DNA from: Clostridiales bacterium
GTDB taxonomy: Bacteria; Bacillota; Clostridia; Christensenellales; UBA3700
Direction of reading: 5' to 3'
NCBI GenBank assembly: GCA_014799645.1
Contig: JAAVHQ010000025.1
Location: 94,388-134,763, forward strand
DNA length: 40,376 nucleotides
The position numbers and the translations under genes are program-made. A model generated the notes under the pieces. The model saw nothing but the letters and a program-made list of their open reading frames with translations, ran no database searches and had not been told where the DNA came from. Positions 2,113 to 37,742 of the stretch are shown here, in pieces; position 1 is the first letter of the stretch; each line of letters starts with the position of its first letter.

Positions 2113-3177
2113 CTATATCAAATCAGAGCGTTTTTGCTCAATTAGCACGTCCACTACTTTCTTAACGTCCTGCGCTTTGTCTTTTGGACACACCAAAACG
2201 GCAGTTGGAGTTTCGACAACAATTAAATCTTCCAATCCCACTCCGACAACTAATCTATTGCTAGAATAAATCGTCGTATTTTTTGAATCCATAGCAAGCG
2301 CGTCGCCTATTGATATATTGCCGCTTTCGTCCGCTTCGTGTAATGCATTCAACATATCCCAACTACCAACGTCATTCCATCCAAACTCGCCTGGAACTAC
2401 AAGTATATCGCCTGCTTTTTCCATAACTCCGTAATCAATGGAAATCGGTCTTATTTTAGGATAAATATCTTCTATTACCTCAATTTCATCCGAAGTACAA
2501 ATAGCATCATACAACTTCGTCAAATCTTTATATATATCAGGCAAAAAACTCTTAAATTTTTCTAGAATAACAGAAGCTTTCCATACAAAAATTCCGCTAT
2601 TCCAAACGTATTCTTCGCTCTTGAAATACTTTTTTGCAGTTTCCAAGTCCGGTTTTTCAACGAAATTCTTTACTTCTTTAACATTATCTTCGCTTTTATT
2701 GTATCTAATATAACCGTAGCCGGTTGCCGCAAACGTCGGTTTTATGCCTACCGTAACTAATTTATCTGTTCTTTTTGCAGTGGCAATTGCTATATTCAAA
2801 ATATCCGCATACTTACTTTCGTCTTTTATATAAGCGTCGGACGGAGTTACTACCATTACCCCATCTCCGTACGTTTTAAGAATTTTAACCGCGGCATAAC
2901 CTATACACGCGGCGGTATTACGCGCAGCAGGCTCGGACAATATATTGTCTCCTTCAATTCTTCCTGCTACTACTTCTTTCATCTTTCCGACTTGCGATTT
3001 ATTTGTGACGATAAAAATCTTATCCTTATTAACTACCTGAGCCAGTCTATCTATCGTCTCATTTATCATAATTTCTTTGCCGTCTAAATTCAAAAGCTGT
3101 TTAGGCGTATCTTTCCTTGAAAGTGGCCAAAATCTTGTGCCTCCGCCACCCGCCATTATTATTCCGTATGCTTCCAT
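2113..3177 (-). CDS. manC: mannose-1-phosphate guanylyltransferase (NTP-transferase only, no cupin/PMI extension)
   Basis: MEAYGIIMAGGGGTRFWPLSRKDTPKQLL matches the ManC/CpsB-type N-terminus. The track ORF runs to 3297, but the first 40 codons overlap the upstream GT4 gene and have no RBS. The ATG at 3177 is preceded by GGAG 7 nt upstream. ATG 3189 is an alternative start. Confidence 0.8.
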   Translation of the reverse strand: MEAYGIIMAGGGGTRFWPLSRKDTPKQLLNLDGKEIMINETIDRLAQVVNKDKIFIVTNKSQVGKMKEVVAGRIEGDNILSEPAARNTAACIGYAAVKILKTYGDGVMVVTPSDAYIKDESKYADILNIAIATAKRTDKLVTVGIKPTFAATGYGYIRYNKSEDNVKEVKNFVEKPDLETAKKYFKSEEYVWNSGIFVWKASVILEKFKSFLPDIYKDLTKLYDAICTSDEIEVIEDIYPKIRPISIDYGVMEKAGDILVVPGEFGWNDVGSWDMLNALHEADESGNISIGDALAMDSKNTTIYSSNRLVVGVGLEDLIVVETPTAVLVCPKDKAQDVKKVVDVLIEQKRSDLI

Positions 3178-17800: not shown

Positions 17801-20800
17801 GATAGGATTGGTCGAATATTCGCCGTTCTGCTCCAAACTATATTCAAATCTTACGACGCCTTCTTCTTTGTAGTGAAGAAGTTCATAACCGCTCAATCCC
17901 TTGTCTTTGAGCAATTCTACGTTCAATGCAAATTCTTGCGGAGTGGTTCTGTAAGTCTTGCGCATATCCTGTCTATCGGATATGATAGTCGCTTCGTGGA
18001 TAATCAAATCTGCCTCGTGGCTTACGAAATTATAACTGTTGATACGCGCTTGAACGAGCGGCTCTCCATCGCTGTCCGTTTCGCCGTCTTTAGGAGAACG
18101 CAATCTTGCTACAAGAACGCCCACGTGCGTTTTTGCGGTATAGAAGTTATCTTCGCTACCGAAATTACTTGGATTGGTCGTCTCTGCGCCCACTATATCG
18201 ACTTCGAATACGGTGCTTGCTCTGCCGGCAATAGCCAAAGAAGTTTGTTCGCCTTTGTCATTTAAGCCGTAAGTGTAGATTTTTGCGTTATCTTCAGCGT
18301 AGTCGTTGTCAGCGAACATTGATTCGGTATAGAAATCAAGGAATTCGCTTGCGCTGGTGCTTCTGCTGTTTCTAGATATTTCGTTTATAGTCTGAGCGTA
18401 CTCAAACTCCATATCTTTCATGTCTACTACCAAATCGCGCTGTTTTATCTCAAACGTCTGCGTAGCGTTAGTAATAGTATAGTTGACGGAAGTATAGTCG
18501 TCTTCAATGCTGAGCACTGCGGTCGCGGTATAAGTACCCGCCCACATTGCCGAGCCGTAAGACACGCCGTCGACATCCGTACGTCTATTTACGAGAGGCG
18601 CAACGTAAGTCACGTCGTCGATTGTGATTTGACCGTCGCCAATTATTCTAATTGAGAATACGAAATCTTTGCCGTCTTCGTCAATCTTGCCGTCGACGGT
18701 CATTTTGCTTATATCGGGTCTGTGTCCCGAGCCGCCGTCATAGTATTGAACGTCTTGCGCGTCCATATTCCAAATAATAGTGACTTCTTTCTTGTTGATA
18801 ACGTACGCGCTGTTCGCTTCGCTGAGCGTAACGTTTACTCTTTTATTCCAAGAATCGATAGGATTGGATTGGTTCTCAATTTGATATTGATACCATTCAT
18901 CTTCGTCTACTTGAAGGTCATCGCTGCTAAGCGCGCCGTAACCTGTAATTCTGACGGGATATCCGTCTTCTCTGGCATTAGTATACCTATTCGTAATCTG
19001 CGTCGCGCTGGATTGCGTGCTCGTGAATACGCCGACGGTGATGACGTCGTTCAAATTGATAGACGTATCGTTGCCGTTTAATTTAACGCTTGCAACGCCT
19101 CTCGAAATGATATCGCTGGACGAAAGCACCTCGTCGCCGTAAGTCGTGGCGACTCTATTTGCGCCCGTCTTGAACGTAACCGCAAGCGTTGCCGGAGTTA
19201 TAGTTATTGTATAACTACCTCTATATGCAAGGTGGTTATCCGCTTGAATTCTGTAATAAACTCTATGAACGCCTACTTCCGTAAAGGAAACACTATTTGC
19301 GCGACCTTCTTCGTCCCACTCTCTCGCATTATCTGTACCCAAATCGTAGTTGGACAGTTTTACGACGAGATTTGCGCCAGATAGAGCCATATTACCTCTC
19401 AATGACACAACGCTACTGTCAATAGGCATATTGTGACTTATCGCTTCGCCCGTATATCCATAAATTATGTCTTCTGGGTCGAAATCGTCCGTATCAACCG
19501 TCATATTTCCTCTAAGGATTGTCAATTTCATTGTCGAATCGACAGTATCGGGGTCTTCCGTCCACTTCACGGGATGATATATTCCGTCCGCCTCCGACTT
19601 ATTTCTCGGTCTAAACGTAATCGTATACTCGCCGGCATTCTTGACGTAACCGTCGCTATTGTAAGTAGCTGCGTTGGCTACGTATCTATCTTCAACCTTT
19701 TCAGGAGTAGTCTTTGCGGTATCGAACTGGCCGTAAATATCATTGTGAATATGCGCGTCAAAATATTTTGCGGTTGTCGCGTTGTAACCGTCAACCCAAA
19801 GCGTTTCAAGTTTCGTCTCATTGCCGTTCTTGTCGCCGTAAGTCCACGGAGTCGGATAAGTCTCGACAGGTCTTCCAACCGTGAATACGAAATTGTTCAT
19901 ATCGTTGGTCAAAGCCGTCATATCATCCGCATTGACCTCTCTCTTTGCGAGATATTGGTCAGCCAAATCAATATATCCTTTTGCAACCGAAGCATTGGTA
20001 GCAAAATTTTGAAGATCATTGTAACTGTCTTCCAACTTATTTCTTGCGTCGAGAAGCGCTTGCTTGTCATATATATGCACTTCTATTTCCAAGTCGGGAG
20101 TACTCTTAGTCGGATTGAGAACATTCTCGCTTGCAGTCTTGGAAGGAATTTCAATAGATTGAGTGCCTTTTACGTGTTTTCCTTCATCGTTTGTATAGTA
20201 TGCCCATTCCGCATGCATTGTGTTAGTAGATGCGGTCGTAAAATCAGTGGCAAGACCGAGCTTGTTTTTATTTTGGTTAGTCACAGTTCCAGTCCAACGC
20301 TCATATAATGCTATTTGATCGCCGGTATACGTCTTGTAATCATATTTTTTGTAATCGATATTGCTCTTCGGGTTACCCTGCATAAAAACAGTCAACGTAG
20401 GCGAGCTATTGCTATCATCTATTGCGCCCAAAATAACGGCGTTGTATGCGTTTGTTCCCGCATTTCCTCCGCCAGGCGACGCATTGTCGTTTCCATTAAA
20501 CTTTTTTCCGCCAATTCCGCTAGAACGAAATCCGCCGTTTTCAAATGAAAAACTATAATTCTCAAAATAATCGTTAAAGATTTTTGCATTAGCGTCAACG
20601 TTGTTGGTTATCGTTGTCTGCGTATATCTTCCCATTATGTTGTGCCAAAACAAGAGAGCGTCATAACTGCCCGTACTTGAATGACACTGGAAATAGAAAT
20701 AGTATCCGGCATCTTGAAGCGACTCACCTTTATTAAGATAAATAGCAGTAGGATACCAAATATCCGCGCCGTATGAACCATCTGCAGTATCAGAAATACG

Positions 20801-21019
20801 AATTACTTTCGAATTAGTCGCATTATACTGCCCGACCTTTTTTATACCAAACGCGCTATTGCTGTACTCAGTAATCCTAGTATCAAGGTTACTAAGTCCT
20901 ACGTCCGGATTTGATTTATGTAAATTGGGCGCGCATAGTATACCCGTAGTCACGACTGCCGCAATGAGCATTATCGATACGACTACCGCAGTAAGCTTGC
21001 GCTTTGTCAAAGAATTCAT
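11849..21019 (-). CDS. giant (about 3056-aa) membrane-anchored surface protein with >20 degenerate MBG (YGX-type)/YDG-like repeats
   Basis: One 9.2-kb ORF.
- Start: the track start at 21034 lacks an RBS. The ATG at 21019 (MNSLTKRKLTAVVVSIMLIAAVVTTGILCA, signal/anchor) is preceded by GGGGGA 7 nt upstream.
- Body: the units are variable in length, mostly about 80-150 aa, of the form phi-x-phi-x-K/R-R/A-x-phi-x-phi ... (T/E)YG, YDG or YNG ... G-x-Y ... NY. Examples are FEITKRPITITVKNQELTYGSAD and FVINPREVDIIWNGESFTYDGQLH.
- C-terminus: VGLIIGIVAAVAAVAVIAIVLIIVLTKKKKGKKDVA, i.e. a TM helix plus basic stop-transfer tail with no LPXTG. Confidence 0.9.
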   Translation of the reverse strand: MNSLTKRKLTAVVVSIMLIAAVVTTGILCAPNLHKSNPDVGLSNLDTRITEYSNSAFGIKKVGQYNATNSKVIRISDTADGSYGADIWYPTAIYLNKGESLQDAGYYFYFQCHSSTGSYDALLFWHNIMGRYTQTTITNNVDANAKIFNDYFENYSFSFENGGFRSSGIGGKKFNGNDNASPGGGNAGTNAYNAVILGAIDDSNSSPTLTVFMQGNPKSNIDYKKYDYKTYTGDQIALYERWTGTVTNQNKNKLGLATDFTTASTNTMHAEWAYYTNDEGKHVKGTQSIEIPSKTASENVLNPTKSTPDLEIEVHIYDKQALLDARNKLEDSYNDLQNFATNASVAKGYIDLADQYLAKREVNADDMTALTNDMNNFVFTVGRPVETYPTPWTYGDKNGNETKLETLWVDGYNATTAKYFDAHIHNDIYGQFDTAKTTPEKVEDRYVANAATYNSDGYVKNAGEYTITFRPRNKSEADGIYHPVKWTEDPDTVDSTMKLTILRGNMTVDTDDFDPEDIIYGYTGEAISHNMPIDSSVVSLRGNMALSGANLVVKLSNYDLGTDNAREWDEEGRANSVSFTEVGVHRVYYRIQADNHLAYRGSYTITITPATLAVTFKTGANRVATTYGDEVLSSSDIISRGVASVKLNGNDTSINLNDVITVGVFTSTQSSATQITNRYTNAREDGYPVRITGYGALSSDDLQVDEDEWYQYQIENQSNPIDSWNKRVNVTLSEANSAYVINKKEVTIIWNMDAQDVQYYDGGSGHRPDISKMTVDGKIDEDGKDFVFSIRIIGDGQITIDDVTYVAPLVNRRTDVDGVSYGSAMWAGTYTATAVLSIEDDYTSVNYTITNATQTFEIKQRDLVVDMKDMEFEYAQTINEISRNSRSTSASEFLDFYTESMFADNDYAEDNAKIYTYGLNDKGEQTSLAIAGRASTVFEVDIVGAETTNPSNFGSEDNFYTAKTHVGVLVARLRSPKDGETDSDGEPLVQARINSYNFVSHEADLIIHEATIISDRQDMRKTYRTTPQEFALNVELLKDKGLSGYELLHYKEEGVVRFEYSLEQNGEYSTNPIALYGYKGGQATVIYYKIKVANHYEVSGHFEAYIDRLPVEINIGNQVVEYFYGDDIPDNDKLIAALGITSTAYTNDDGDEHEYAFSIGTNLEFYLTDNGQAFTNRDHGAGNYSLALRSKGDGELLENYIFTWTGRLAAGAFKISQRPLIIDWRQTGDEWQDGMSYIYDTTIPTIQPIIRQYRRVDANLTDANQIGDATADDNDGDYIENYLEIATSAITLRSQRLSGSTVGAYTTAQASLTNANDQRNYCLVNDTTIFNIVKREIEIDVFDKSATYGSASTVPMGVLTNPTSVGANWRYHTADGRKFVGDHYMYWEVSTIAQSSVEGQYNGVGNYPIVFSTNDGGSISSNYTIIPYRVSYDDDNNETVTPSDSFDSVATFKITKANLSIMHNEFNFDASPKSEDSNSPVETCELTISEIREIIRVVGGTKLADLTIEMSDIFEYTTGTNLGNQIPDGIDMNFTIANRSMEQLGKFYVWIRVTNENYNEFVTPIYISNYSSWISIKFNSTTVGTNYGDNIMNSTRLFAALRDGFASESNTDTASIVGVMSDAATNTGSQLLGRKAWDAIIARGYFSLYVVEDVTTRLDVGFYTINMTIDPEKAVYTSEGVQQELHIRFIGATAGRGKTSNVDKYEVKQRPIWLNFDPSIDEVYGDHSDISPSHTGFEIGNILEEDEEAGTVRPILTYTYRNGDSVGEGHVHYVGEYTVRLTGVSHSNYRVPTSTEYSELGITANNIRKFFEITKRPITITVKNQELTYGSADARITGSNNNIDIYLNSDDIYTISGRGLYPGHNPSDIFVLSSPEAIDATREVSSSLNYLVVGTFNIEGDYKGGLISDQYLISFETEFRDETYATLTINKATATIDTNTFKSISFDGAWHCPLADVNDVLAFTFQGDADYIRGHRNTYFNEDVNADPNDPTGWVQIWRNGQYVEDNDFTFRNAGTYTFAVMVRSDNHETVVRRDISYEILPVNVVINMTGTVEKTYGDVVTNLSDRIKTDTKVSYTITTASGTPWDSSMKTKIDDALTFYVVAGGEDGANGGAATADFTNDVGYYRVYHRFIDSNERANYVIDYATNASGVRCNAAAYHINRRVAEVVWYTRKDGVTGSQITYSEEEFLARADVWSSGKEFEYANGGIGLRAAYTGIRYNEDGDLETYYIPLTVSGVGSHARSNAYTANAAFNTTSTYSAINKNYTIPSGTTFVHTIVPRKVSVRISSQGTTYGYTKAQILNAFNDSETQWNAEDGEIVPEGINIWLDLSMYENNQYVDADTYSIRAAYEGDSEGYFDFAVTFKDKDGNEGWGVYTVRKHAAIDNMVDSMVGLVYNGAEQEVDVWSYIDSLGDSDDLLVGAMNWSDVTVKYSDTASQDANDYSAQKRTVKNATSGTPIYYMLSLKNYEDTFGEISVIVRSAEIRYNADIVEIQYGETQLTSDELFKQMNIRVNEDESDPLAVQLKELVEFYVVDNNHTIGTYRIRARFKNEADSSNITVRNQYSDIIEGVEESATAYPYHIVRRVLTVNWGETVFVYNARQQEFTADGFDNVLPGEEISPATYSVVERDESGEVISQTSGNGVNVGKYEVKIVVNRETGTNANYVVKEEDSYMIFEIIPKEIELTWSNLSFEYDREVHLPKATIARGSILGTDYCNIPEENWYSLEKVSGSGTEFGKDAGTYRINVVALDNDNYTVPASQATTFVINPREVDIIWNGESFTYDGQLHCITATIAEGGILGTDECEVIVNGDAKDAGWHNAVATGLTNPNYRLRRGNAGQSFAINKATISQVTWSDTSLTYKEENGIGQAQLPTVTAVVGAIPGDAIEFELIVSEGEAVNVGTYTATILMIKGGNYSLDITNNTMKFTISQADNAFVEEIKMPEPDGGLPVLADFANVTAKYGKATIKYYTDAECQNEYTGDISEASKGTYYVVISVEGTQNYKAVASQAFAIEVEGKSNVGLIIGIVAAVAAVAVIAIVLIIVLTKKKKGKKDVA

Positions 21020-21058
21020 AGAATATTCCCCCATCTTAGTTTATAATTTTACATATAC

Positions 21059-21088
21059 ATTGTATCACCCTACATTCAACGGTGTCAA
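21059..21088 (-). promoter_or_regulatory. promoter of the 3061-aa surface protein gene
   Basis: Minus strand TTGACA (21088..21083), 18 nt ending in TGA (extended -10), TACAAT (21064..21059). Confidence 0.6.
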
Positions 21089-21131
21089 TAGATGAGAAAA
21101 AAGTTTTTACAAAGTTTTTTAACAAATTTTG

Positions 21132-21164
21132 GAAAAAAAGAAGAGTAAGCCGTCGGCTTACTCT
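21132..21164 (-). terminator. intrinsic terminator of the ABC exporter operon
   Basis: 10-bp stem AGAGTAAGCC / GGCTTACTCT (21142..21151 and 21155..21164) that includes the stop codon. On the minus strand it is followed by TCTTTTTTTCC. Confidence 0.8.
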
Positions 21165-26588: not shown

Positions 26589-28442
26589 TCAACGTCTTTT
26601 TGTTCTCGCTACGCTCTCTTCCCAACCGAGCAAGAGATTGTATCTCTTTTCCTCGTCCATTTGCGGATTGAACGAAGTGCCTTCGCTTATCTCGTTTTTG
26701 AGTTCCTCAACGTCGCTCCATACTCCCGCTTTCAAACCTGCTAAATAACACACGCCGAGCGCGGTCGTTTCTATGACAAGCGGACGCTTGACTTCCGCTT
26801 TAAGTATATCGGCTTGGAATTGCATTAGGATATTCGATACGCTTGCTCCGCCATCGACTGCGAGCGAAGAAATCTTGTAGCCAATATCGCTCTCCATAGC
26901 GTGTACTACGTCAAAGACTTGATACGCGATAGATTCGAGCGCGGCGCGGACAAAATGCTCTTTTTTCGTGCCTCTCGTCAAGCCGGTAATCGTACCTCTT
27001 GCCTTAGCGTCCCAGTGGGGCGCGCCAAGTCCTACGAATGCAGGAACGATATACACGCCGTTGGTGTCCGCAACACTTTCGGAAAGTACGTCCGCTTCTT
27101 TCGCCGACTTTATCAAGCCGAGTTCATCTCTAAGCCATTGCAATACCGCTCCGCCGACGAATACGCTTCCCTCCAACACGTATTGCGGTCTGCCGTCTTC
27201 CATACTTGCGCCGAGCGTGGTAATCAATCCGCGCTTTGACGCGACAAATTCATTGCCCGTATTCATAAGCGTAAAGCAACCCGTACCGTAGGTATTTTTG
27301 ACGCTGCCTTTCTCCGTGCAAAGGTGTCCGAAAAGCGCCGACTGTTGGTCGCCCGCAACGCCGCAAATAGGTATCTCTTTGCCCACTACGCTCGCGTCGC
27401 ACTTGCCGAAATCATAACTCGACGGATAGACTTGCGGCAACATTATTTCGGGGATATTGTAAATCGCGAGCAACTCTTTGTCCCACTCCAAAGTCTTGAT
27501 ATTGTACATCATAGTACGCGACGCGTTGGTGTAATCGGTGGCGTGAATTTTACCGTCCGATAGTTTCCACATAAGATACGTGTCCACCGTGCCGAAAAGC
27601 AACTCGCCTTTCTCCGCTCTCGCTCTCGCGCCCTCGACGTTGTCCAAAATCCATTTGAGTTTTGTCGCCGAGAAGTACGCGTCCACCGTCAATCCTGTCT
27701 TGTCGAAAATCTTTTCGTCAAGCCCTTGAGCTTTGAGAAAGTCGCAATATTCCGCGGTACGTCTGCACTGCCATACGATTGCGTTGTAGACAGGTTTTCC
27801 CGTCTCTTTATCCCACACGATTGTGGTTTCACGCTGATTGGTTATTCCGATTGCGGTAACGCTGCTGAGCGAAATTCTGCTCTTTGCCACCGCTTGTTTG
27901 AGCACTTCGAGTTGCGTATTCCAAATCTCTTCGGGGTCGTGTTCTACCCAACCTGCTTTGGGATAAATTTGCTTAAATTCTTTTTGCGCCGAACCTACTA
28001 TATTTCCTCTCTTGTCAAAGACGATTGCCCTTGACGACGTAGTGCCTTGGTCAAGCGAAATGATATACTTCGCGGGTATCTTTTTGGGCACGTCTTTTGT
28101 CGCCACAAAGTCCACTCCAAGACCCAACACGTTGGGGACGATTACTTGACCCGTTTCGACAGGCGCGTTCACCGTCAAGCCGTCGAGAAGCGCGAGCGCG
28201 TCGAATATCTTGTCTTTGGGAATACTATCTGAAGTCTTTACGCTGACCATACGGATAGTACCGCCCTCGACCCTAGCCACGGACGTGACCATACGCTTTG
28301 GACATACGACTTCGTCTTTGGCGTATTTTGCACCTCTTGGGCAAGTATTTCCGCTGACTTTGATATCGTTCAAATCGCTATCGTCTACTTTGAGCCTACA
28401 CCCCATAGGACAGCATATACAAATCAATTCTTTCATACTCAT
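26589..28442 (-). CDS. glpK: glycerol kinase with an N-terminal DUF1667 (Cys-rich) domain fusion
   Basis: 617 aa.
- aa 1-~120 ([15 protein letters not shown]...[15 protein letters not shown]...[15 protein letters not shown]) match the DUF1667 pattern.
- From aa ~124, [24 protein letters not shown]...[11 protein letters not shown] and the rest are full-length GlpK.
- The ATGA overlap with the upstream gene is at 28439..28442. Confidence 0.9.
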
Positions 28443-29698
28443 TCCCCCTTGAGCGCAACAATCATTTGCTCGCCTTTGATTACCTTTTCAATTTGCTCTC
28501 TATTCAAGATTACCGTCTCCATTTCGCCCGGCGTGACGATTTGTTTCTTCTTGGAATAAATCTCTTCATCGCCCGCCATTACGACAAGTCGCACGTTTTT
28601 ATGCACGTTGCCTACGCGCATTTTCAACTGCAATTTATCTAAAGCGCAAGTCTTGGAAATGCGTTGCGGTACGACGTATCTCACGCCGTCCATACCCACG
28701 ACTTGGACGTAATCTCTCACTACTTTGCCGCTCTTGATATACTCCGCCGCGCTCTTGCCCGCGTCCTCGCTCTCTTTGCTGACAAAGTCAACGAGATCGT
28801 GTACGTGCAAGACGTTTCCGCACTCGAAAATACCGTCGACAGACGTCATCATATTTTCGTCTACAACCGCGCCGTTCGTTATCGGCGAAACGCTCACTTG
28901 CGCGCCGACTGCAAGTTCGTTTTGAGGTATAAGACCTATACTCAAAAGAAGCGTGTCGCAAGGTATCTCTTGCGCCGTCGACATTATCGGTTGAAGCTTG
29001 CTGTCCACCTCTGCGATGACTACGCTCGATACTCTGCCCTCGCCCTTAATATCGACTACGGTATGCGAAAACAAAAGCGGAATATCAAAGTCTTTTACGC
29101 ACTGCACGATGTTTCTGTTAAGTCCCGACGAAAACGGCATAAGTTCGACAACCGCCTTGACTTTTGCGCCCTCGAAGGTCATACGTCTTGCCATAATCAG
29201 ACCTATATCGCCGCTGCCAAGAATAACGACTTCTTTGCCCGGCATATATCCGTCAATGTTGATGAGTTTTTGCGCCGTACCTGCCGAGAAAATGCCCGCG
29301 CATCTGCTACCTGCGACGTTGATACCGCCTCTCGGACGTTCTCTGCAACCGCACGCGAAAATGACTGCTTTCGCTTGAATTTTCATCAAGCCGTCGTACT
29401 CGTTGACCGCGGTCACGACTTTCTCATTACTTACTTTGAGTACTGTTGTTTCGAGTTTGTATTCAATACCTCTTTTGATTACTTCGTCGATATATCTTTT
29501 TGCATATTCAGGACCTGTCAATTCTTCCTTGAAAGTATGCAGTCCGAAGCCGTTGTGAATACACTGATTGAGTATTCCGCCAAGTACGTTTTCACGCTCT
29601 AAGATAAGTATATCGCGCTCGCCGTTGTCGTACGCGCTCTTTGCCGCTGCAAGTCCTGCCGGTCCTCCGCCTATAATTACAAGATTTTTCTCTATCAT
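28439..29698 (-). CDS. FAD/NAD(P)-dependent pyridine-nucleotide-disulfide-type oxidoreductase (second subunit of the DUF1667-associated glycerol-3-phosphate oxidoreductase set)
   Basis: 419 aa. First dinucleotide fold [14 protein letters not shown]. Second dinucleotide fold [14 protein letters not shown]. Confidence 0.8.
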
Positions 29699-29701
29699 AA
29701 T

Positions 29702-31144
29702 TTACCCCTCAACCTTGCCGTTTTTGGCTTTGCCTATTACGATTTTGCCGCCTTGCGATTTGAGTACGTCCTCAAAAGGAATACCCAACTCCCTCGCGAG
29801 AATTTCCATTACGCTTTCCATACAAAAACCGCTTTGACACTTGCCCATTCCTGCGCGTGTACGCCTCTTCACGCCGTCCACGTCCTTTGCTCCGACGGGT
29901 CGGTTTATCGAGTCGACAATCTCGCCTTCGGTGACTACTTCGCATCTGCAAACTACCTTGCCGTAAAGCGGATTTTTTGCGATAAGTTTTTGCCTTTCGG
30001 TATCGCTCATTGTAGCAAAATGCGGTATGCCCTTTCTCGTCGCGATAAAGTCGGTTTTTCTATCCAGCGCAAGAATGTGCGCCACGTCTTCGGCGACGTA
30101 TACCGCTATCGCGGGAGCGGAAGTCAACCCCGGCGATTCTATACCCGCGACGTTGTAGAAACCTCTCTTGTCGCTCATACCGATTATAAAATCTCCGCTT
30201 GTCGAGTGCGCTCTCGTGCCGCTGAATTGAGTAATGACGTACTTTTTGTTGAGCGACGGAACGCTGAAAAGCGACTTTTCCCATACTTCTTTCAATCCGT
30301 CGAAAGAGGTGTTTATATCGTCCTTGCTGTCGACGTCGTTTGCCGTCGGTCCTGTGATAAGATTGCCGTGCGTGGTCGGCGCAACCAAAATGCCCTTGCC
30401 CATCTTGCTCGGCATTTGGAATATTGTCCTTTGCGCCAAATATCCGCAAGTCTTGTCGTATAGCATATACTCGCCTTTTCGCGGTATTATCTCTATCTTT
30501 TTATCGCTTACCATATTGTTGAGATCGTCGGCGTGTACGCCCGCGCAGTTGATGACCATATCCGCCTCGTATACCGCGCCGTCTTGCGTCTCAACTTGCC
30601 ATATCTTACCCTTTTTGGCAATCTTGGTGACTTTCTTTTCAAAGAGGAATTTTACGCCGTTGGCGGCTGCGTTCTCCGCGTAGGCAATCGCCATTTCGTA
30701 AGGACTTACGATACCCGAAGTCTTTGCCCAAAGCGCGGCGACAACTTCCTTGCTGACGTGAGGCTCAATCTCCCTGACCTGATCGCCGGTAAGCGTCTGC
30801 AATTCTTCAACGCCGTTGGCTACGCCTCTTTGATACAAATCGTACAAATTGGGCAAGTCTTCCTCGCTAAAGCACAGCACGAGCGCGCCGTTGCGCTTGA
30901 ACGGGAAATCCAACTCTTTGGCAAGTTTGTCAAACATTGCGTTGCCAAGCAGATTAAATTTTGCTTTTTTTGTATTAGGTTTTGCGTCGAAACCTGCGTG
31001 TACTATACCCGAATTTGCTTTCGTTGTACCGCAACTGACGTCGTTGAACTTTTCCAAAACGGTAATTTCCGCGCCATAACGGCTAAGTTCTCTTGCCACA
31101 CTGCAACCGACGATACCTGCGCCGATTATTAAAACTTTTCTCAT
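29702..31144 (-). CDS. FAD-dependent glycerol-3-phosphate dehydrogenase/oxidase-like protein with C-terminal BFD-like [2Fe-2S] domain
   Basis: 480 aa. DAO-type N-terminus VLIIGAGIVGCSVARELS. C-terminal Cys cluster VVCRCEVVTEGEI...RRTRAGMGKCQSGFC. First gene of the glycerol operon. Confidence 0.85.
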   Translation of the reverse strand: MRKVLIIGAGIVGCSVARELSRYGAEITVLEKFNDVSCGTTKANSGIVHAGFDAKPNTKKAKFNLLGNAMFDKLAKELDFPFKRNGALVLCFSEEDLPNLYDLYQRGVANGVEELQTLTGDQVREIEPHVSKEVVAALWAKTSGIVSPYEMAIAYAENAAANGVKFLFEKKVTKIAKKGKIWQVETQDGAVYEADMVINCAGVHADDLNNMVSDKKIEIIPRKGEYMLYDKTCGYLAQRTIFQMPSKMGKGILVAPTTHGNLITGPTANDVDSKDDINTSFDGLKEVWEKSLFSVPSLNKKYVITQFSGTRAHSTSGDFIIGMSDKRGFYNVAGIESPGLTSAPAIAVYVAEDVAHILALDRKTDFIATRKGIPHFATMSDTERQKLIAKNPLYGKVVCRCEVVTEGEIVDSINRPVGAKDVDGVKRRTRAGMGKCQSGFCMESVMEILARELGIPFEDVLKSQGGKIVIGKAKNGKVEG

Positions 31145-31295: not shown

Positions 31296-34200
31296 TTACT
31301 TACGCTTCATAGCGCGCTGCTCTCGCAAATACTCATTATAACGCTCAATTTGGTCTTCTCTCAAATCCACCATATTTTTAGCAGTTGCGAGAGCCTGCGC
31401 GTCATTAACAACAACTTCGCTTTCTTTGACTTTAACTTTAGTTCCGTCGCTGCCTGCATTACGGCGAATGTCTTTGAAGTATTCGTCTTCCATTTTGAAT
31501 AGCGCAACCGTCGTGTTTTTCTTAATTGTCAACTTGACGAGCGGATTGACGGTAGATTGACCTAGTACTATGAAGTAAGTGGACTTCTTCTCTTTGCACT
31601 TGTCTTTGCTCATTGCGTAGGCTTTTAGCGTATCGAATATCTTCTTTTGCTTGTCGGAAAGTTTCGCATACGCCTCGTCAAGCGTAAGTCTTCGCGCGGG
31701 CGCTTTCGCCTTTGGCGCAGGTTTCTCAATCGGCATAGGAACGACTTTCTCTACCTCGACGATTTTCTCTACGGGTACTTCTACTCGCACTTCCTTTTCG
31801 ACAATCTTCTCGACAGGCTTTTCGATTATGATTTTTTCCGCAGGTTGTTGAACCAACGTCGGTTGTGGCATATACGGCATTACGACTTGCTTATCATTGT
31901 TTCTGCCTGACATCTCCATAATTTGTCGCATCAACATCTCTTGATTGCGCATCAGCATTTCGATTTTTTCGTCTTTGCTGTCCTTTTCCACTAACTTGAC
32001 AAGTTGCTTATCTTCGTCCTGTCGCGAAAGTTTTTCCATAATCGCCTTTTGTCCTTCGAGTAGGCTCTTTATTACCTCGTCGTTGGCATTAGTCGACGCG
32101 ACTTCTCTTTCCGCTTGTTTCTCGACTTCTTGTTGCTTGGACAGTTTCTCGACCAACTTCTCTATCGCCTTTTCATTGCTCTCGGTAAGTTGCTTTATTC
32201 TATCCTCATTTTCCTCGTTGAGTTGCTTAATGCGCTTTTCGTTTTCCTCATTCTGCTCTTCGAGTTTGCGCATAATATCTTCGTTGCTCGACGCTTCTTG
32301 CGGTAGATATTGCGTTACGCTCGGAAGCATTGCGCTCATCGCGTCGTTGAGCATAAGTCGCATTTCGTCCGCGCTTACGCCTTGCTGATACGCAAAGCCT
32401 TGTCCGTTTGCATTTCCGCCCATCATTCCCATGAGCATCATTTGCATTTGCTTGTTTTCGGCTTCCTTTTGGTTTTTCGCGTACTCGTCTTTTGCGTCTT
32501 CCAAAGCGCGTAGAGATTTCTTGTATCCGCTCTTCTCTAAAAGCATAAAGATAAACGCTAATACCGCAACTCCCATAAGTATGCAAGCGATTATTGTCCA
32601 GTTGGTCATAGTAATGCCAAACAAGCCAACTGCGTACGCGCTATATTTGCTATCCATCACACGCTTGTTTTCTTTCTTCTTGCTTGCATAACCTAAGCCT
32701 TTTGCCATAAACGCAACAATTAAGATTATGCTTATTGCACTTGCTATTACTTGCCACCACTGTTTGAGCGCTTCGGTTATCTTATCAAAATTAAAGTTGC
32801 CGCCCTCGTTGTCTCCATTTCCGTTCGGGTTGCTCGGATCTGTACCATCTTCGCCCGGATAGAACGGATTGTTCGGGTCGTCCGGGTCATATATTTGCTC
32901 GTTCGCGCTGACCGTGAATTCTTGCCATTCGGTCTCTGTAGTGCCGTCTGCGAAGACGTAATTGTTCTTGTCTGTAATTACCGCTCTGACCTTGTAGCTA
33001 TTTCCGGCTTTCAGGTCGCTGAACTGCAACGGATTGTCGTCCATATCAGCATACTCGTGCTTTATGCCTTGCATTTCTTTTGCAGTCACGCCCAACGACG
33101 GCGGATTATGGCTTGTATTCCATTTACTGCTATCTATTTGCATTTGCGCGATAGAATATTCAATAATCGCTACGTCGCTTTCTACGTTGTCGCCCGCTAA
33201 GTAATATCCGCTTACGCTATCTTTTATCTTTATCTCTACTCTATAATCGCCTACGTTGGTTGGCGCGCTTGCAAGTGGCGTCGTTCCGTTCTTATCGTAA
33301 TACGTTATTTCAAATATATCCGCGCTTGCAGAGCCTTTATCAAATATTATCTCTACAGGTTGAGCGTTGCCATTGTACGTCAACTCTTTATTGATACTTA
33401 TTTGCAATTCTTCCGCATACGTTCCCACTCCGAAGGCTATCGAATACTCGCTTCCCGACAACTCGTATTTATCTCCGTTGTCAGACGTAAATACCGCTTG
33501 CGCTACGTAGGTCTTTACCTTATTTTCTTCTATCTCTATTTTCGTTATATAAGGCGTAGTTTCAGTTATCTCGCTTGCAGAATTTACCTCGTAATATCTA
33601 TACGTAATTATATTAGACGGATATCCGCTCATATTCAATACTCTTGCCGTATACTCTACGCCATTATCGTCCGTCCTCTTTTCCGTTGTCCAATTAGCAT
33701 TTATCACGGCTTTGACTACTTCCCAATCCAACGTCCATTCGTCAAAAGTACCCTCGTAGGAATCTGCGTCTCCTTGAACAGGCTTATAGTAATTGATATC
33801 ATAACCGCTTGCGAGTTCAAAGTATACTTCTTCGCTGCCCGTTTGTCCTACGTACGTGCCTTTTATTGTCTCATACGTATACCTTGCTATAAGTCCTTCT
33901 GGCAACTTGCTTTCGTCCAATACTGCGCTTATTCCGCCCACAGTGTATGGCAACATTCCGTCGGGATATTGCCACTTGACGTTTGTCAAGTTAAACTTCG
34001 TCTTGTCTATCGTCCATTCTATGGAATATATATCGTTGCCAAGTTTGATTGACGTCTTGTACGTTCCCGCGTCTTTGCCTAGTACGTTTCCGTCACCGCT
34101 TATCTTCTCGACTAAATATCCGTTTGAACCATAGTTGGTGTCCAATGTATATCCGTTCGGCAAATCTACTTGGAATGCAAACTGTTCTCCGCTATATACA

Positions 34201-36815
34201 ACACTATTGGCAAGAGTCTTTACTCCTGTCTCTGTGAGTTCTGTCACTGTACGATAAAACGTCTTTTCTACGTTGCCTTCGTACAACTTCCAAAGTATAT
34301 TCGTCCTCTGTCCTGCCGGTAATACTGTCAACGTCGCAGCATTTTTCAATGATATAGTATAGTTGCTATCGCTCGTCTTTACGTCCAAAGTATAACTGCC
34401 TTCAAAGAAACTGCCTAGATTTATTATCTGCTGATTTTCTACTTTATAATTATTACTTTGCAAAGTTGACGCGTCTAACTCTATCGCCGAACTTACCGTT
34501 ATATCCGTGCCAGAGTAAGGTATAAAGATTGTTATCGGAACTTTATCGCTTCCCAACGGCGCGCCGTTGACGTCGACGTATATATCCGCAGACGTACTTG
34601 TCGCGCCTTCGGCTATGCTGAAATTACTGTTAGTTCCTCCGCTGACTGCCAACCGCTCTATTACCAACTCTGCGGGCGTGACTATCACTTTTAGTTCAGA
34701 CGTAGACGCAAATCGGTAATTGATTGCGTGCGTAGACTTGATTGAAGCGACCAACTCGTACGTCCCGGCACTCTGCGCGCTGACGCTATACGGCAGTGTC
34801 GTCTTATTTATCGATACTCCGCTGCTATAATAATTATCTTCCCAATTCAAATCCATTATATTTGGGTCGAAGTTATTTAACTGAAACCTTACGTCGTTTC
34901 CGCCATTGTACGGTTTGCTATTGCTACTTATTGACGGATACGTCAGGACTATCTGCTTTATCTCAAAGTCTATGGTTCGTACGGTATCGCTATCTCCAGT
35001 CGTATCTCCCCAAGCATATTCGTTTGGTTTCAATAAAGTAAGTCGAATCGTATAATTGCCTGCGTTTGTAGGTGTAACGCTTTGCGTTCCCACTAAATAT
35101 TCTACTTTTACAATGCTTGAATCGGCATATACTGAATTATACCAGTCAAGACTCGTTTTGAGCGTTTCCAAAGTTTGTGCTGAGCCATTATAGTCTACTG
35201 AAATATCGGCTACAGAAAGCGCTCCGTTGACAGTGTAACTTCCCGTGATACTCTCTGCGCAATATCCGCCCCTTGCTGCTCCGTCAGTAAACAAAACTGT
35301 TATGCTATAATCGCTTGCGTTTACTCCGTTCAAATTCGCAGTAGCAACACCGTTATTAAACGTCGCCGTTGCTTGATACGATACCGCTCCGTTGCCAGAC
35401 TTGTCCGCAAGTAAAATTATTGCGCTACCGCTCTGTCCCGATTTTGTGACACTTACGCTATTGTTGGTAACCGATATACTCGGTCTACCAGATGATGATT
35501 GGTTGTAATTCACGTAGTCTGACGACTTCATATATAACTTATATGCAGGCGTGGAGTCCGCAGCCGTAGTCACCGAAATAAAATTTGCTCCGTTTGAAGA
35601 AAGATCCGCAGCCGTTGCGTAAATAATATTCGCATTTGTTGGTGAAAAGTTAAAAGCCGGACGCACACCGTATGCATTGTTGACAAAATTGAAACCCACG
35701 TAGCCGGGGGAAGAGACGACCATCGCATAAGAATTGCTTGTACTACGATTGCGCCCCGCCGGACGAAGCAAATAAGTGGTAGCCGCACCTGAGAAGAGGT
35801 CATTTCCTATAATGTAACCGGTCGAGCGATAAGAAGTTCCTTCATAATAACTTGGATAACCGCTAGAACCTGTCTGAGTAGTTGTAGTATTCGTCCACGA
35901 AGAAAGTGTGGATGCATTATTCACTACTTGTTGCGCGTATGTCACGCCACTATCTCCCATACCGTAAGCAGTATTGTTGAGGTCGTAATAGTCGATTAGG
36001 AATAAATAATCACCCACAGTTGTCTCTGTTACGCTATTGCTGTTGCTGGAGATTTTTTCGTCATTGTTCTTCGCGTACACATGTCCGTTCATTGTAGATA
36101 CAATAGAGGTATTATACTTCGAAGCAGCGTTTCCGCTTGTTGTGATACCTGTTGTTTGAAATTGCGGATTGTAATTATCTGAGTATGCAAAATCGCTTGT
36201 CGTATAAGCCGTCGCTTGCAAAATAGCACCCCTCTCGTTGGTATTGAACCAAGTCTCTAAATAAGGTTTGTCAGTCTCGCTAGCGTCATCCAACTTTATT
36301 TGTTGATTAAGGGCAGCGACGGCATTTTCCGAAGTAACTGCAGCAAGATAATACCCGCCGTTGAGTTTCGCTCTTATATAACTAGAAGACCAGTACGCAT
36401 ACGTCTGAGAATATACGTTGTTTACGTAATAATTTTTGTTATAAGCAAGCGTGGTAATCGAAGAGTCCGCCCATACAAGCCAAGATTTTTCCGATGCCGT
36501 AGCGGTTGAATCATTGTTTTTGGAATTATATTTATAGTCGTCAACAGAGAGTATTCTCCACTTTAATGCTTGTCCCGAATCGCTTCCCAAATATATACTC
36601 TGTTTCTGTCCACTCTCAATTACGTTCGAGAAATAATCTTGCTCTCCCCCCTTTGCATTAAGATTAAGCACTGACGGCGCGCCATAAGTAAGCGTCGACG
36701 ATTCTACATTTTTATTTGGTACAAATATAGTCATTGCGCTTGCCATAATCATACACACAATAATCAATATTGACAGCGCAACGTACCCCTTTAATTTTCG
36801 TTTTCGTATATCCAT
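31296..36815 (-). CDS. giant (1839-aa) surface protein: signal/anchor, DUF6273-like head, MBG/YDG-like repeats, membrane segment(s), long charged coiled-coil C-terminal region
   Basis: One 5.5-kb ORF with RBS GAGGTG 4 nt upstream of the ATG.
- Signal/anchor: YVALSILIIVCMIMASA.
- Head, aa ~70-395: ALKWRILSV...YWSSSYIRAKLNG...YLFLIDYYDL...YLLRPAG...YGVRPAFNF (DUF6273-like pattern, from memory).
- Repeats with YNG/YSG motifs: DYNGSAQTL, KPYNGGNDV, LTYNGNAQPVEI.
- Hydrophobic segments at aa 1353-1375 and 1393-1426.
- Then an E/K-rich tail of about 410 aa. Confidence 0.9.
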   Translation of the reverse strand: MDIRKRKLKGYVALSILIIVCMIMASAMTIFVPNKNVESSTLTYGAPSVLNLNAKGGEQDYFSNVIESGQKQSIYLGSDSGQALKWRILSVDDYKYNSKNNDSTATASEKSWLVWADSSITTLAYNKNYYVNNVYSQTYAYWSSSYIRAKLNGGYYLAAVTSENAVAALNQQIKLDDASETDKPYLETWFNTNERGAILQATAYTTSDFAYSDNYNPQFQTTGITTSGNAASKYNTSIVSTMNGHVYAKNNDEKISSNSNSVTETTVGDYLFLIDYYDLNNTAYGMGDSGVTYAQQVVNNASTLSSWTNTTTTQTGSSGYPSYYEGTSYRSTGYIIGNDLFSGAATTYLLRPAGRNRSTSNSYAMVVSSPGYVGFNFVNNAYGVRPAFNFSPTNANIIYATAADLSSNGANFISVTTAADSTPAYKLYMKSSDYVNYNQSSSGRPSISVTNNSVSVTKSGQSGSAIILLADKSGNGAVSYQATATFNNGVATANLNGVNASDYSITVLFTDGAARGGYCAESITGSYTVNGALSVADISVDYNGSAQTLETLKTSLDWYNSVYADSSIVKVEYLVGTQSVTPTNAGNYTIRLTLLKPNEYAWGDTTGDSDTVRTIDFEIKQIVLTYPSISSNSKPYNGGNDVRFQLNNFDPNIMDLNWEDNYYSSGVSINKTTLPYSVSAQSAGTYELVASIKSTHAINYRFASTSELKVIVTPAELVIERLAVSGGTNSNFSIAEGATSTSADIYVDVNGAPLGSDKVPITIFIPYSGTDITVSSAIELDASTLQSNNYKVENQQIINLGSFFEGSYTLDVKTSDSNYTISLKNAATLTVLPAGQRTNILWKLYEGNVEKTFYRTVTELTETGVKTLANSVVYSGEQFAFQVDLPNGYTLDTNYGSNGYLVEKISGDGNVLGKDAGTYKTSIKLGNDIYSIEWTIDKTKFNLTNVKWQYPDGMLPYTVGGISAVLDESKLPEGLIARYTYETIKGTYVGQTGSEEVYFELASGYDINYYKPVQGDADSYEGTFDEWTLDWEVVKAVINANWTTEKRTDDNGVEYTARVLNMSGYPSNIITYRYYEVNSASEITETTPYITKIEIEENKVKTYVAQAVFTSDNGDKYELSGSEYSIAFGVGTYAEELQISINKELTYNGNAQPVEIIFDKGSASADIFEITYYDKNGTTPLASAPTNVGDYRVEIKIKDSVSGYYLAGDNVESDVAIIEYSIAQMQIDSSKWNTSHNPPSLGVTAKEMQGIKHEYADMDDNPLQFSDLKAGNSYKVRAVITDKNNYVFADGTTETEWQEFTVSANEQIYDPDDPNNPFYPGEDGTDPSNPNGNGDNEGGNFNFDKITEALKQWWQVIASAISIILIVAFMAKGLGYASKKKENKRVMDSKYSAYAVGLFGITMTNWTIIACILMGVAVLAFIFMLLEKSGYKKSLRALEDAKDEYAKNQKEAENKQMQMMLMGMMGGNANGQGFAYQQGVSADEMRLMLNDAMSAMLPSVTQYLPQEASSNEDIMRKLEEQNEENEKRIKQLNEENEDRIKQLTESNEKAIEKLVEKLSKQQEVEKQAEREVASTNANDEVIKSLLEGQKAIMEKLSRQDEDKQLVKLVEKDSKDEKIEMLMRNQEMLMRQIMEMSGRNNDKQVVMPYMPQPTLVQQPAEKIIIEKPVEKIVEKEVRVEVPVEKIVEVEKVVPMPIEKPAPKAKAPARRLTLDEAYAKLSDKQKKIFDTLKAYAMSKDKCKEKKSTYFIVLGQSTVNPLVKLTIKKNTTVALFKMEDEYFKDIRRNAGSDGTKVKVKESEVVVNDAQALATAKNMVDLREDQIERYNEYLREQRAMKRK

Positions 36816-36848
36816 TTTACACCTCGATTTTACCCGATTTTTGGTCTA

Positions 36849-36874
36849 GTCAGGAAAAGTATACATTTCCTGAC
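36849..36874. repeat. 26-bp palindromic recombinase-type site (site 1): 12-bp inverted half-sites around a central AT
   Basis: GTCAGGAAAAGT AT ACATTTCCTGAC, with half-sites 11/12 symmetric. The palindrome extends to 30 bp with flanking TA (36847..36876). It lies 33 nt upstream of the ATG of the 1839-aa gene. Confidence 0.7.
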
Positions 36875-36883
36875 TAAAAGCAC

Positions 36884-36912
36884 TTGAATAAAAAATTATG
36901 ATATGTTATGAT
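36884..36912 (+). promoter_or_regulatory. promoter inside the repeat-flanked 89-bp segment, currently pointing towards the recombinase gene
   Basis: TTGAAT (36884..36889), 17 nt, TATGAT (36907..36912). The -10 lies in a tandem TTATGATAT duplication (36896..36915). Confidence 0.55.
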
Positions 36913-36963
36913 ATACATGTCTAATTATCACGAATTTTGACTTTTGAGTGTTGAAATTCTTCG

Positions 36964-36989
36964 GTCAGGAAATGTATACTTTATTTGGA
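36964..36989. repeat. site 2: inverted copy of site 1 (perfect over 19 nt) with a degenerate outer half-site
   Basis: 36964..36982 GTCAGGAAATGTATACTTT is the exact reverse complement of 36856..36874. The outer half ACTTTATTTGGA matches the half-site in only 7/12 positions. Confidence 0.7.
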
Positions 36990-37124
36990 ATTTTTTGACA
37001 TATTTTGAATTTTATCTACTGTTTTCGACATTTTTTGCAAAATTTACATCACTCTCCGCACTCGACAAAGATATTATAAAAAATACGTTGTTTTTATGCG
37101 CGCATTTTTGGACATAATACCTTT

Positions 37125-37742
37125 ATGAACGTTTACGGATATGCAAGAGTATCGTCGTCAGACCAAAATCTTGGAAGACAAATTAAAGAACTGACTAATT
37201 TCGGTATTCCCGAAAAGAAAATATTTTGTGAAAAGAAAAGCGGTAAGGATTTTGAGAGAAAAGAATATTTGCGACTTATGAAAAAACTTCGCTCGGGCGA
37301 TTTGCTCGTGATCAAGTCAATCGACAGACTCGGTCGCAACTATGAATCTATAATCTCAGAATGGAGCAACATTACTCACAAGATAGGCGCGAATATAGTC
37401 GTGCTTGATATGCCCCTTCTCGACACTCGAGAAAAGGCGGGAACTTTGGTGGGAAAATTTATTGCCGACATAGTATTGCAAGTGCTCTCTTTCGTCGCCG
37501 AAAACGAACGCGCCAATATCCGCGCCCGACAAGCCGAAGGCATCGCCTTGGCAAAGCAATCGGGTACTCGCTTTGGCAGACCGAAGAAGGCTTTCACCGC
37601 GGAATTCATTCAAGTCGCAGAGGATTATATCCACAAGCGAATTTCTTTGCCAGAGGCATTGGATTTACTTAATATGAAGCAGTCTACTTTCTTTTACCAT
37701 TTTGGTTCGTACAACTGCTTTAAGGATGAAAATATTGAATAA
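37125..37742 (+). CDS. small serine recombinase (resolvase/DNA-invertase family)
   Basis: 205 aa. Catalytic motif VYGYARVSSSDQNLGRQ (nucleophile Ser10), then DLLVIKSIDRLGRN. The C-terminus has the GRPKK arm plus an HTH (ISLPEALDLLNMKQSTFFYH). No transposase or phage genes are adjacent. Confidence 0.9.
   Translation: MNVYGYARVSSSDQNLGRQIKELTNFGIPEKKIFCEKKSGKDFERKEYLRLMKKLRSGDLLVIKSIDRLGRNYESIISEWSNITHKIGANIVVLDMPLLDTREKAGTLVGKFIADIVLQVLSFVAENERANIRARQAEGIALAKQSGTRFGRPKKAFTAEFIQVAEDYIHKRISLPEALDLLNMKQSTFFYHFGSYNCFKDENIE

Follow-up and report, generated by a model that had tools for sequence, protein, structure and literature searches.

A 143-bp probable promoter inverton of a multi-copy cassette family upstream of a giant membrane-anchored protein gene in uncultured Clostridia

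We analyzed a 40,376-nt stretch of DNA from a Clostridiales bacterium (assembly GCA_014799645.1, contig JAAVHQ010000025.1; hereafter the window, with positions counted from its first letter), in which the gene of a giant 1839-aa protein and the gene of a small serine recombinase diverge from a common intergenic region. The region 36849–36989 between them is very probably an invertible promoter cassette, and it belongs to a multi-copy family with about ten members per genome in a clade of uncultured, probably gut-associated Clostridia, some of whose metagenome-assembled genomes (MAGs) are labelled Christensenella. An earlier note, made from the letters of the window, had proposed a promoter inverton here, and this proposal is supported by three homologous loci found in two orientations, by both states among paralogues, by conserved sites and promoter hexamers, and by matching site cores. 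The same note treated the switch as stand-alone, which it is not: a genome has about ten such cassettes, each before a giant-protein paralogue. The features of the locus are as follows.

31296–36815, minus strand: giant target gene, 1839 aa (from the open reading frame (ORF) list, translation and a hydrophobicity scan)
36816–36848, minus strand: fixed leader of 33 nt with the ribosome-binding site GAGGTG (minus-strand reading) at 36820–36825, read from the sequence
36849–36874, no strand: site 1, 12-2-12 crossover-type site GTCAGGAAAAGT-AT-ACATTTCCTGAC, central dinucleotide 36861–36862
36875–36963, no strand: segment of 89 nt between the repeat arms (inverted-repeat search)
36884–36912, plus strand: conserved predicted promoter, −35 TTGAAT at 36884–36889, 17-nt spacer, TG at 36904–36905, −10 TATGAT at 36907–36912 (promoter scan, 9/12 matches plus TG)
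36895–36923, minus strand (36923 to 36895): promoter-like match TAGACA-17-CATAAT facing the giant gene (scan, 10/12 matches)
36951–36980, plus strand: promoter-like match TTGAAA-18-TATACT overlapping site 2 (promoter scan)
36964–36989, no strand: site 2, GTCAGGAAATGT-AT-ACTTTATTTGGA, central dinucleotide 36976–36977
36990–37124, plus strand: region of 135 nt between site 2 and the recombinase ATG, with no terminator-like site
37125–37742, plus strand: small serine recombinase, 205 aa, Ser10 in YARVSSSDQ, GRPKK followed by a short C-terminal domain (PF00239 E = 1e-28, residues 3–148)

Both sites are 26 bp long, and the whole element is 143 bp as given in the title. The arms at 36856–36874 and 36964–36982 form an inverted repeat of 19 nt that is 100% complementary, with 89 nt between the arms and 115 bp from one site centre to the other, and the asymmetric position found in site 1 has its mirror image in site 2, which sets the two sites in inverted orientation. 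These values, the 12-2-12 sequence and geometry of site 1, and the distances of 33 nt from site 1 to the giant-gene ATG and of 135 nt from site 2 to the recombinase ATG all agree with the earlier description. The repeat is the longest short-range inverted repeat of the window, and the maximum in 200 random windows (first-order Markov) was 16 nt. The 40-kb window has three copies of the 16-mer GTCAGGAAAWGTATAC with 0 mismatches, all of them at the cassette; with up to three mismatches allowed, the chance expectation of this 16-mer in the window is 0.72, and no further half-sites beyond chance were found elsewhere in the window. Both sites have a strong inner half-site, and site 2 combines it with an outer half-site that is degenerate yet conserved (TCCAAAWAAAGT on the other strand). 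If exchange takes place at the central dinucleotides, the DNA turned over would be 36863–36975 (~113 bp). The 33-nt leader between site 1 and the ATG of the giant gene leaves no room for a private promoter, and a short leader at this place recurs in the paralogous copies.

A pattern built from site 2 and its outer flank was scanned against GTDB with one genome per species, and it gave 35 matches in only 8 MAGs, with up to 9 per genome. These MAGs are titled Clostridia, Clostridiales or ‘uncultured Christensenella sp.’. One of them, JAAVHS01, contains a locus near-identical to that of the window (L056; recombinase 99.5% identical) and eight further matches. The gene next to site 1 is, in most copies, a long one whose product begins with MDI[RK]K[RK]K and a hydrophobic stretch and is paralogous to the giant protein. 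A recombinase gene adjoins 7 of the 35 cassettes and is missing beside the other 28. Contigs encoding recombinase homologues at 92%, 83% and 78% identity all keep the same layout: next to a large divergent gene lies a full palindromic site, which is followed by a segment of ~89 nt, the other site and the recombinase gene. We rejected the idea that this architecture is universal among close recombinase homologues, since the loci of P0012 (72% identity) and P0061 (69%) are other contexts without such sites.

With the promoter as the guide to orientation, 36 cassettes can be aligned over their full length, in the order of inner half-site, 8–9 nt, TTGNNN, 17–18 nt, TATAAT-like hexamer (often preceded by TG), ~50 nt and the other inner half-site; the TTGAAT promoter is at the same place, 8–9 nt from the inner half-site, in 36/36 of them. 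To this alignment we added a comparison within the species group, which comprises nine cassettes (eight loci of the species and one relative with a 92%-identical recombinase). The numbers of invariant positions (n = 9) are as follows.

Site 1: 25/26
Site 2: 24/26
−35 hexamer: 6/6
−10 hexamer: 5/6
89-nt segment: 59/89
Right flank (60 nt): 12/60

While the flanks diverge, the sites and the plus-strand promoter are near-invariant, and therefore selection holds them. The inverted repeat is perfect over 19–21 nt in each copy. We compared core and spacing in 51 cassettes, some of which are the same locus from different samples. A serine recombinase cuts with a central stagger of 2 nt and needs matching cores in inverted sites, as is known for Hin, Gin and the resolvases. 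In 51/51 cassettes the paired sites have reverse-complementary core dinucleotides, and the core differs by lineage (AT in 21, GT/AC in 29, CT/AG in 1). The spacing is 115 bp in 34 cassettes, 116 in 11, 114 in 1, 106 in 1, 104 in 2 and 94 in 2, which at 10.5 bp per turn corresponds to 10.9–11.0, 9.9–10.1 and 9.0 helical turns. Because the spacings cluster near whole helical turns, they suggest that the two sites must sit on a defined face of a very small loop. A distance of 115 bp had been noted as short for a serine invertase; it is instead the most constant feature of the family (114–116 bp in 46/51).

The predicted TTGAAT-17-TGnTATGAT promoter is of the sigma-70 type and lies 8 nt from an inner half-site; in the sequenced state, it reads to site 2 and the recombinase gene and away from the giant gene. 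It had been called the only near-consensus promoter of the intergenic region. Its location inside the segment and its direction hold, whereas its uniqueness does not, as the scan lists three promoter-like matches; it is nevertheless the sole one conserved across the related cassettes. In the minus-strand match, TAGACA-17-CATAAT, both hexamers vary among the cassettes of the species group, and the −10 hexamer is absent in other lineages. This hexamer falls in the AT-rich spacer of the conserved plus-strand promoter, and the minus-strand match is probably incidental to that spacer, although it has to be reckoned with for the species of the window. The sequenced state would be silent (OFF) for the giant gene; we word this conditionally because the species-specific match on the other strand faces that gene.

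Inversion of the segment is seen at three homologous loci. At the first, seven assemblies (L009, L010, L013 and L015–L018) have the 89-nt segment in one orientation and L011 has its exact reverse complement, with identical sites, a left flank identical at 984/997 positions, and a recombinase 78% identical to that of the window. At the second, L077 is flipped relative to L074–L076 and L078, with a recombinase of 70% identity and the half-sites TGCAGTAAAAGT. At the third, which lies upstream of a giant-protein homologue, the segment of L090 and L091 is turned over relative to that of L088 and L089. Furthermore, among the 30 complete cassettes in the 8 MAGs the promoter points toward the site-2 side in 20 and toward the site-1 side in 10, and both states occur within one genome (e.g., L064, L066 and L069 versus L065). 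Inversion is demonstrated in the family, not in the species of the window. Contig breaks inside site 2 (L002) or at its edge (L012 and L014) were considered as a further sign of inversion and not counted: repeats alone suffice to explain them, because the site and ~30 nt at the start of the right flank are common to paralogous cassettes.

A mechanism can be proposed from this arrangement. Both 26-bp 12-2-12 sites would be bound by dimers of the small serine recombinase encoded next to the cassette, or of its paralogue encoded at another place in the genome, and a tetramer would synapse the sites across the 115-bp loop of ~11 helical turns. Ser10 would attack at the central AT, the subunits would rotate and the ends would rejoin, turning over 36863–36975. 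The recombination steps follow established serine-recombinase chemistry; that the copy in the window still flips, and that it is cleaved at the central dinucleotide, we infer. In the sequenced state, transcripts from ~36919 would run through site 2 toward the recombinase ATG at 37125, with no terminator-like site between, and the invertible promoter may possibly feed the recombinase gene. In the flipped state, transcripts from ~36919 on the other strand would cross site 1 and the fixed 33-nt leader before entering the giant gene, and their total leader would be ~100 nt. Both transcription starts are predicted positions placed from the hexamers. Each giant-protein paralogue would be switched independently in this way, which would lead to phase and antigenic variation of the family.

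Several observations weigh against an ON/OFF inverton that is active in the window. The orientation evidence comes from consensus assemblies of different samples, each showing the majority state. No flipped copy was found in the species of the window or its closest relatives (~10 loci), where the promoter always points away from the giant gene (the window, L001, L056, L093, L094, L038, L044, L055, L060 and L062, and the partial L043 and L068). The flipped junction of the locus in the window would read ...ACATTTCCTGAC joined to CGAAGAATTTC..., with CGATTTTACCCGATTTTTGGTCTA as the unique left flank; the exact junction, ACATTTCCTGACCGAAGAATTTC, gave 0 matches in the JGI metagenomes, which counts weakly, as that collection has one family cassette only. 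The minus-strand match (10/12) faces the giant gene as sequenced, and the gene may not be silent. Lastly, the genome of the species has at least two recombinase paralogues, and either might act on the sites. The absence of flipped copies among the ~10 loci and of the flipped junction from the metagenome scan would also fit a relic, in which the cassettes once inverted, or still do so in related species, and are frozen here as the fixed upstream DNA of the giant genes and the recombinase gene. We consider this quite improbable, because the sites are near-invariant among the cassettes of the species while the flanks and the segment interior diverge, the repeat is perfect in every copy, the recombinase has an intact ORF, which recurs at 99.5% identity in a second MAG, and the metagenome collection is nearly without this clade. 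The ‘all away’ consensus fits each paralogue being expressed in a minority of cells, and equally fits a frozen system.

The uniform state of the species has also to be set beside the minus-strand match. With a promoter on each strand (10/12 on the minus strand facing the giant gene, and 9/12 plus TG on the plus strand), the giant gene would be transcribed in both orientations, and inversion would trade a stronger and a weaker promoter between its two sides, that of the giant gene and that of the recombinase, instead of switching between ON and OFF. That all cassettes of the species share one state speaks for this, as it would be odd for that state to silence every paralogue in every cell; a consensus assembly, by contrast, reports the majority state, and ‘all off’ is what one expects when only a minority of cells has any given paralogue switched on. 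The minus-strand −10 lies in the AT-rich spacer and is missing from the other lineages of the family, and the minus-strand hexamers vary within the species group where those of the plus strand are invariant at 6/6 and 5/6 positions. These differences make a promoter swap unlikely in our view. The earlier note itself had named a rival, a res-like operator at which a resolvase-type protein represses the divergent genes through the sites without recombination between them. The likeness of the recombinase to the resolvase Sin fits such an operator, as does the overlap of site 2 with the promoter-like match at 36951–36980 that reads to the recombinase gene. The sites are inverted and not direct, the segment is reverse-complemented at the same locus in three homologous systems, and 28 of the 35 related cassettes lack an adjoining recombinase gene. 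These facts contradict the operator as the main function, to which we assign hardly any probability; protein bound at site 2 could still tune transcription that reads through into the recombinase gene.

For the invertible promoter cassette, our preferred reading, the candidate recombinase is encoded beside it in the window. The YARVSSSDQ and GRPKK motifs reported earlier are present, and the protein matches PF00239; the putative helix-turn-helix named along with them would lie in the ~50 residues after GRPKK, where no Pfam or NCBIfam model of such a domain matched. The protein aligns with Sin and gamma-delta resolvase over the catalytic domain, and its solved relatives rank as Sin / Tn552 Bin3 (108 bits, E = 4e-30), gamma-delta resolvase (68 bits) and Gin (54 bits). 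Against the Mpi-family model NF009949 of NCBIfam it scored 47.9 bits with a cut-off of 272, which places it outside that family. Judged by these alignments, the recombinase is closest to Sin and is not Hin/Gin-like. The MAG of the species encodes two recombinase paralogues, 99.5% and 82% identical to the enzyme of the window, each beside a cassette. The neighbouring genes and searches of plasmid and phage collections gave no transposase or phage neighbours, as had been claimed. We also considered a mobile-element origin of the intergenic region and rejected it: the intergenic region had no match in the phage and plasmid collections, and the neighbouring genes are without plasmid, phage or transposon context. 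In MAG MGBC118395 (L039:2682–2998), the cassette-adjacent recombinase matches as two fragments only, residues 1–56 and 132–204; the gene is either disrupted or misassembled there, and the same gene is intact in five other assemblies (L004–L008).

Promoter invertons with a master recombinase are well known from Bacteroides (Mpi, serine) and C. difficile (RecV, tyrosine). By analogy, the closest functional analogue of the present system is Mpi of Bacteroides fragilis, and the geometry of the sites is that of hix/gix. Mpi is a serine-type master recombinase that inverts at least 13 regions, including seven polysaccharide loci (PMC5903667). Both systems combine a serine recombinase with many short scattered promoter invertons, each before a surface-structure locus, and here there are up to 9 per genome, most without a recombinase gene of their own. 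They differ in that the recombinase of the window lies outside the Mpi family (47.9 versus 272 bits), uses a different site sequence and has single giant protein genes instead of polysaccharide operons as targets in a Clostridia lineage; furthermore, its gene is directly downstream of one inverton, so that the invertible promoter can read into it. With Hin, Gin, Cin and Pin the system shares a small serine recombinase and inverted 26-bp sites in which a 2-bp core separates two half-sites of 12 bp. Hin flips the promoter for a surface antigen. Gin is more distant from the recombinase of the window (54 bits) than Sin (108) or gamma-delta resolvase (68), and the segment here is ~115 bp versus ~1 kb or more, with the recombinase gene outside the segment and many target loci per genome. 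The Firmicutes resolvases (Sin, beta and Tn552 Bin3) include the nearest solved relative of the catalytic domain, namely Sin / Tn552 Bin3, and beta recombinase is able to invert the DNA between two inverted sites when a DNA-bending protein assists it. The resolvases act on cointegrates of plasmids or transposons, which they resolve at res sites with accessory subsites, whereas the sites here are chromosomal, inverted around a promoter, and free of transposon or plasmid context.

Two further known systems use tyrosine recombinases. The element fimS of Escherichia coli, with FimB and FimE, is a short promoter inverton whose orientation also affects the adjoining recombinase gene (the orientational control of fimE by fimS), which here would be a possible consequence only; it differs in its tyrosine recombinases, its 314-bp length and its single locus. 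RecV of Clostridioides difficile serves several short promoter-type switches for cell-surface proteins (PMC5903667). The RecV switches (cwpV and the flagellar switch) resemble the present case in having one recombinase for several surface-protein switches in a member of the Clostridia, and differ in the chemistry and site architecture of a tyrosine recombinase. Inverton surveys found invertons in Clostridia, and the inverton group linked to an invertase there has a tyrosine-type enzyme (PMC11892184). A literature search for Christensenell* with inverton, phase variation or recombinase found no paper.

The absence of a recombinase gene beside 28 of the 35 cassettes and the near-identity of the sites within a genome are suggestive of one recombinase serving many dispersed invertons. 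A broader model that we hold only tentatively, as rather less than an even bet, is that the Sin-like recombinase would be a master invertase for ~ten minimal promoter invertons, which have a fixed spacing of ~11 turns and no recognisable enhancer and would phase-vary clade-specific giant membrane-anchored proteins with hypervariable heads. Its own gene would be wired to one inverton, with one state feeding the recombinase gene and the other a giant gene, and this would produce feedback on switching capacity. If the promoter alternately feeds the recombinase gene and the target gene, the switch would be self-referential. The system would be a third, independent one, in poorly studied and largely uncultured gut Clostridia, and it would differ from the known ones in its Sin-like recombinase lineage, a new crossover-site consensus and an unusually short, strictly kept 115-bp geometry. 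Its targets would be a previously uncharacterised family of 1500–2000-aa proteins with variable heads. The consensus GTCAGGAAAAGT-NN-ACTTTTCCTGAC and the cassette layout would offer a search key for such regulons in MAGs without read data, and would also explain the assembly fragmentation of these genomes at cassette loci. The fixed ~11-turn spacing would make the cassette a compact model for serine-recombinase synapsis across a very small loop.

The 1839-aa target protein has an N-terminal signal anchor (~residues 7–35), a long Ser/Thr/Asn-rich region with a variable head (~residues 40–530), two hydrophobic helices (~1352–1375 and ~1401–1430) and a charged C-terminal part of ~400 aa. A Pfam search gave no family above threshold and a sub-threshold match to DUF6273 only, and the 21 homologues are all hypothetical proteins from Clostridia MAGs. 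For these reasons the label ‘adhesin-like’, which the protein had been given, is unsupported and has to be regarded as a guess. The cassette-linked paralogues share the N-terminal anchor and the C-terminal ~500 residues (~50% identical), and are mostly unalignable from about residue 40 to 530. An AlphaFold model of the head (residues 36–540) from 11 sequences had a mean predicted local distance difference test score (pLDDT) of 38, too poor for a fold search. A locus from sample ERZ27267574 (L093:1–6658) is syntenic with 31296–37742 of the window and has a near-identical cassette and a recombinase identical at 129/130 residues over the part compared. The giant gene there is a different allele, encoding 1985 aa with 48% identity over 69% of the query, and from this comparison the target gene at the fixed locus appears to be replaced or fast-diverging.

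The region between site 2 and the recombinase gene has features of its own. The first ~60 nt of 36990–37124 are similar to the right flanks of cassettes lacking a recombinase gene, and ~60 nt past site 2 are kept among the cassettes of one lineage even when no gene follows, e.g., TTGGAATTTTTTGCTATTTGTCGATTTTTT (window 36990–37050; right flanks of L038–L072). The right flank in the window contains a direct repeat (36977–37005 and 37017–37045, 72% identical), and nothing in the ~60 nt conserved within lineages marks them as a Fis-type enhancer. They may serve as an accessory element in recombination or as an upstream promoter element, or be a mere part of the duplicated unit. The leader toward the recombinase gene folds no better as RNA than shuffled sequence (z = −0.77), and a search for known RNAs in the intergenic region gave only sub-threshold microRNA-hairpin models that match the inverted repeat.

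A 14-bp palindrome, ATAGAAAATTCTAT, is located in the long leaders between some cassettes and their targets (L088:~180–200; right flanks of L045 and L061). A second setting is the region upstream of the 72%-identical recombinase P0012 (L019–L028, ~150–200 nt before the gene), where the palindrome stands twice around the −35 hexamer and an ORF of the XRE-type helix-turn-helix class adjoins; it is not present near the cassette of the window. The palindrome may be an operator for a second layer of control. The loci of another recombinase, P0063 (69% identity), face a gene for a Big_2-domain protein and carry the related sites GTAGTAAAAGT-AC-ACTTTTCC... They fall into two forms, L030, L031, L034 and L036 versus L029, L032, L033, L035 and L037, which differ ~100–350 nt upstream of the recombinase gene (at 3001). 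Some of these assemblies are longer by a 106-bp module, which brings in a third site and another promoter (TTGACA-17-TACAAT) and so makes two tandem cassettes, and the short form looks like the long form minus the stretch between two sites.

Elsewhere in the window, a second giant ORF of 3061 aa with an N-terminal hydrophobic anchor (11849–21034, minus strand) is located downstream of an apparent polysaccharide/glycosyltransferase-type cluster, recognized by ORF pattern only. Its upstream region (21035–21157) is ordinary AT-rich DNA, in which no recombinase sites were found. Directly downstream of the 1839-aa gene, 26589–31144 (minus strand) encodes a glycerol-utilisation-like set, an ordinary metabolic context, consisting of an FGGY kinase fused to DUF1667, a pyridine-nucleotide-disulphide oxidoreductase and a DAO/BFD-type flavin adenine dinucleotide (FAD) dehydrogenase; L093 has the same neighbour.

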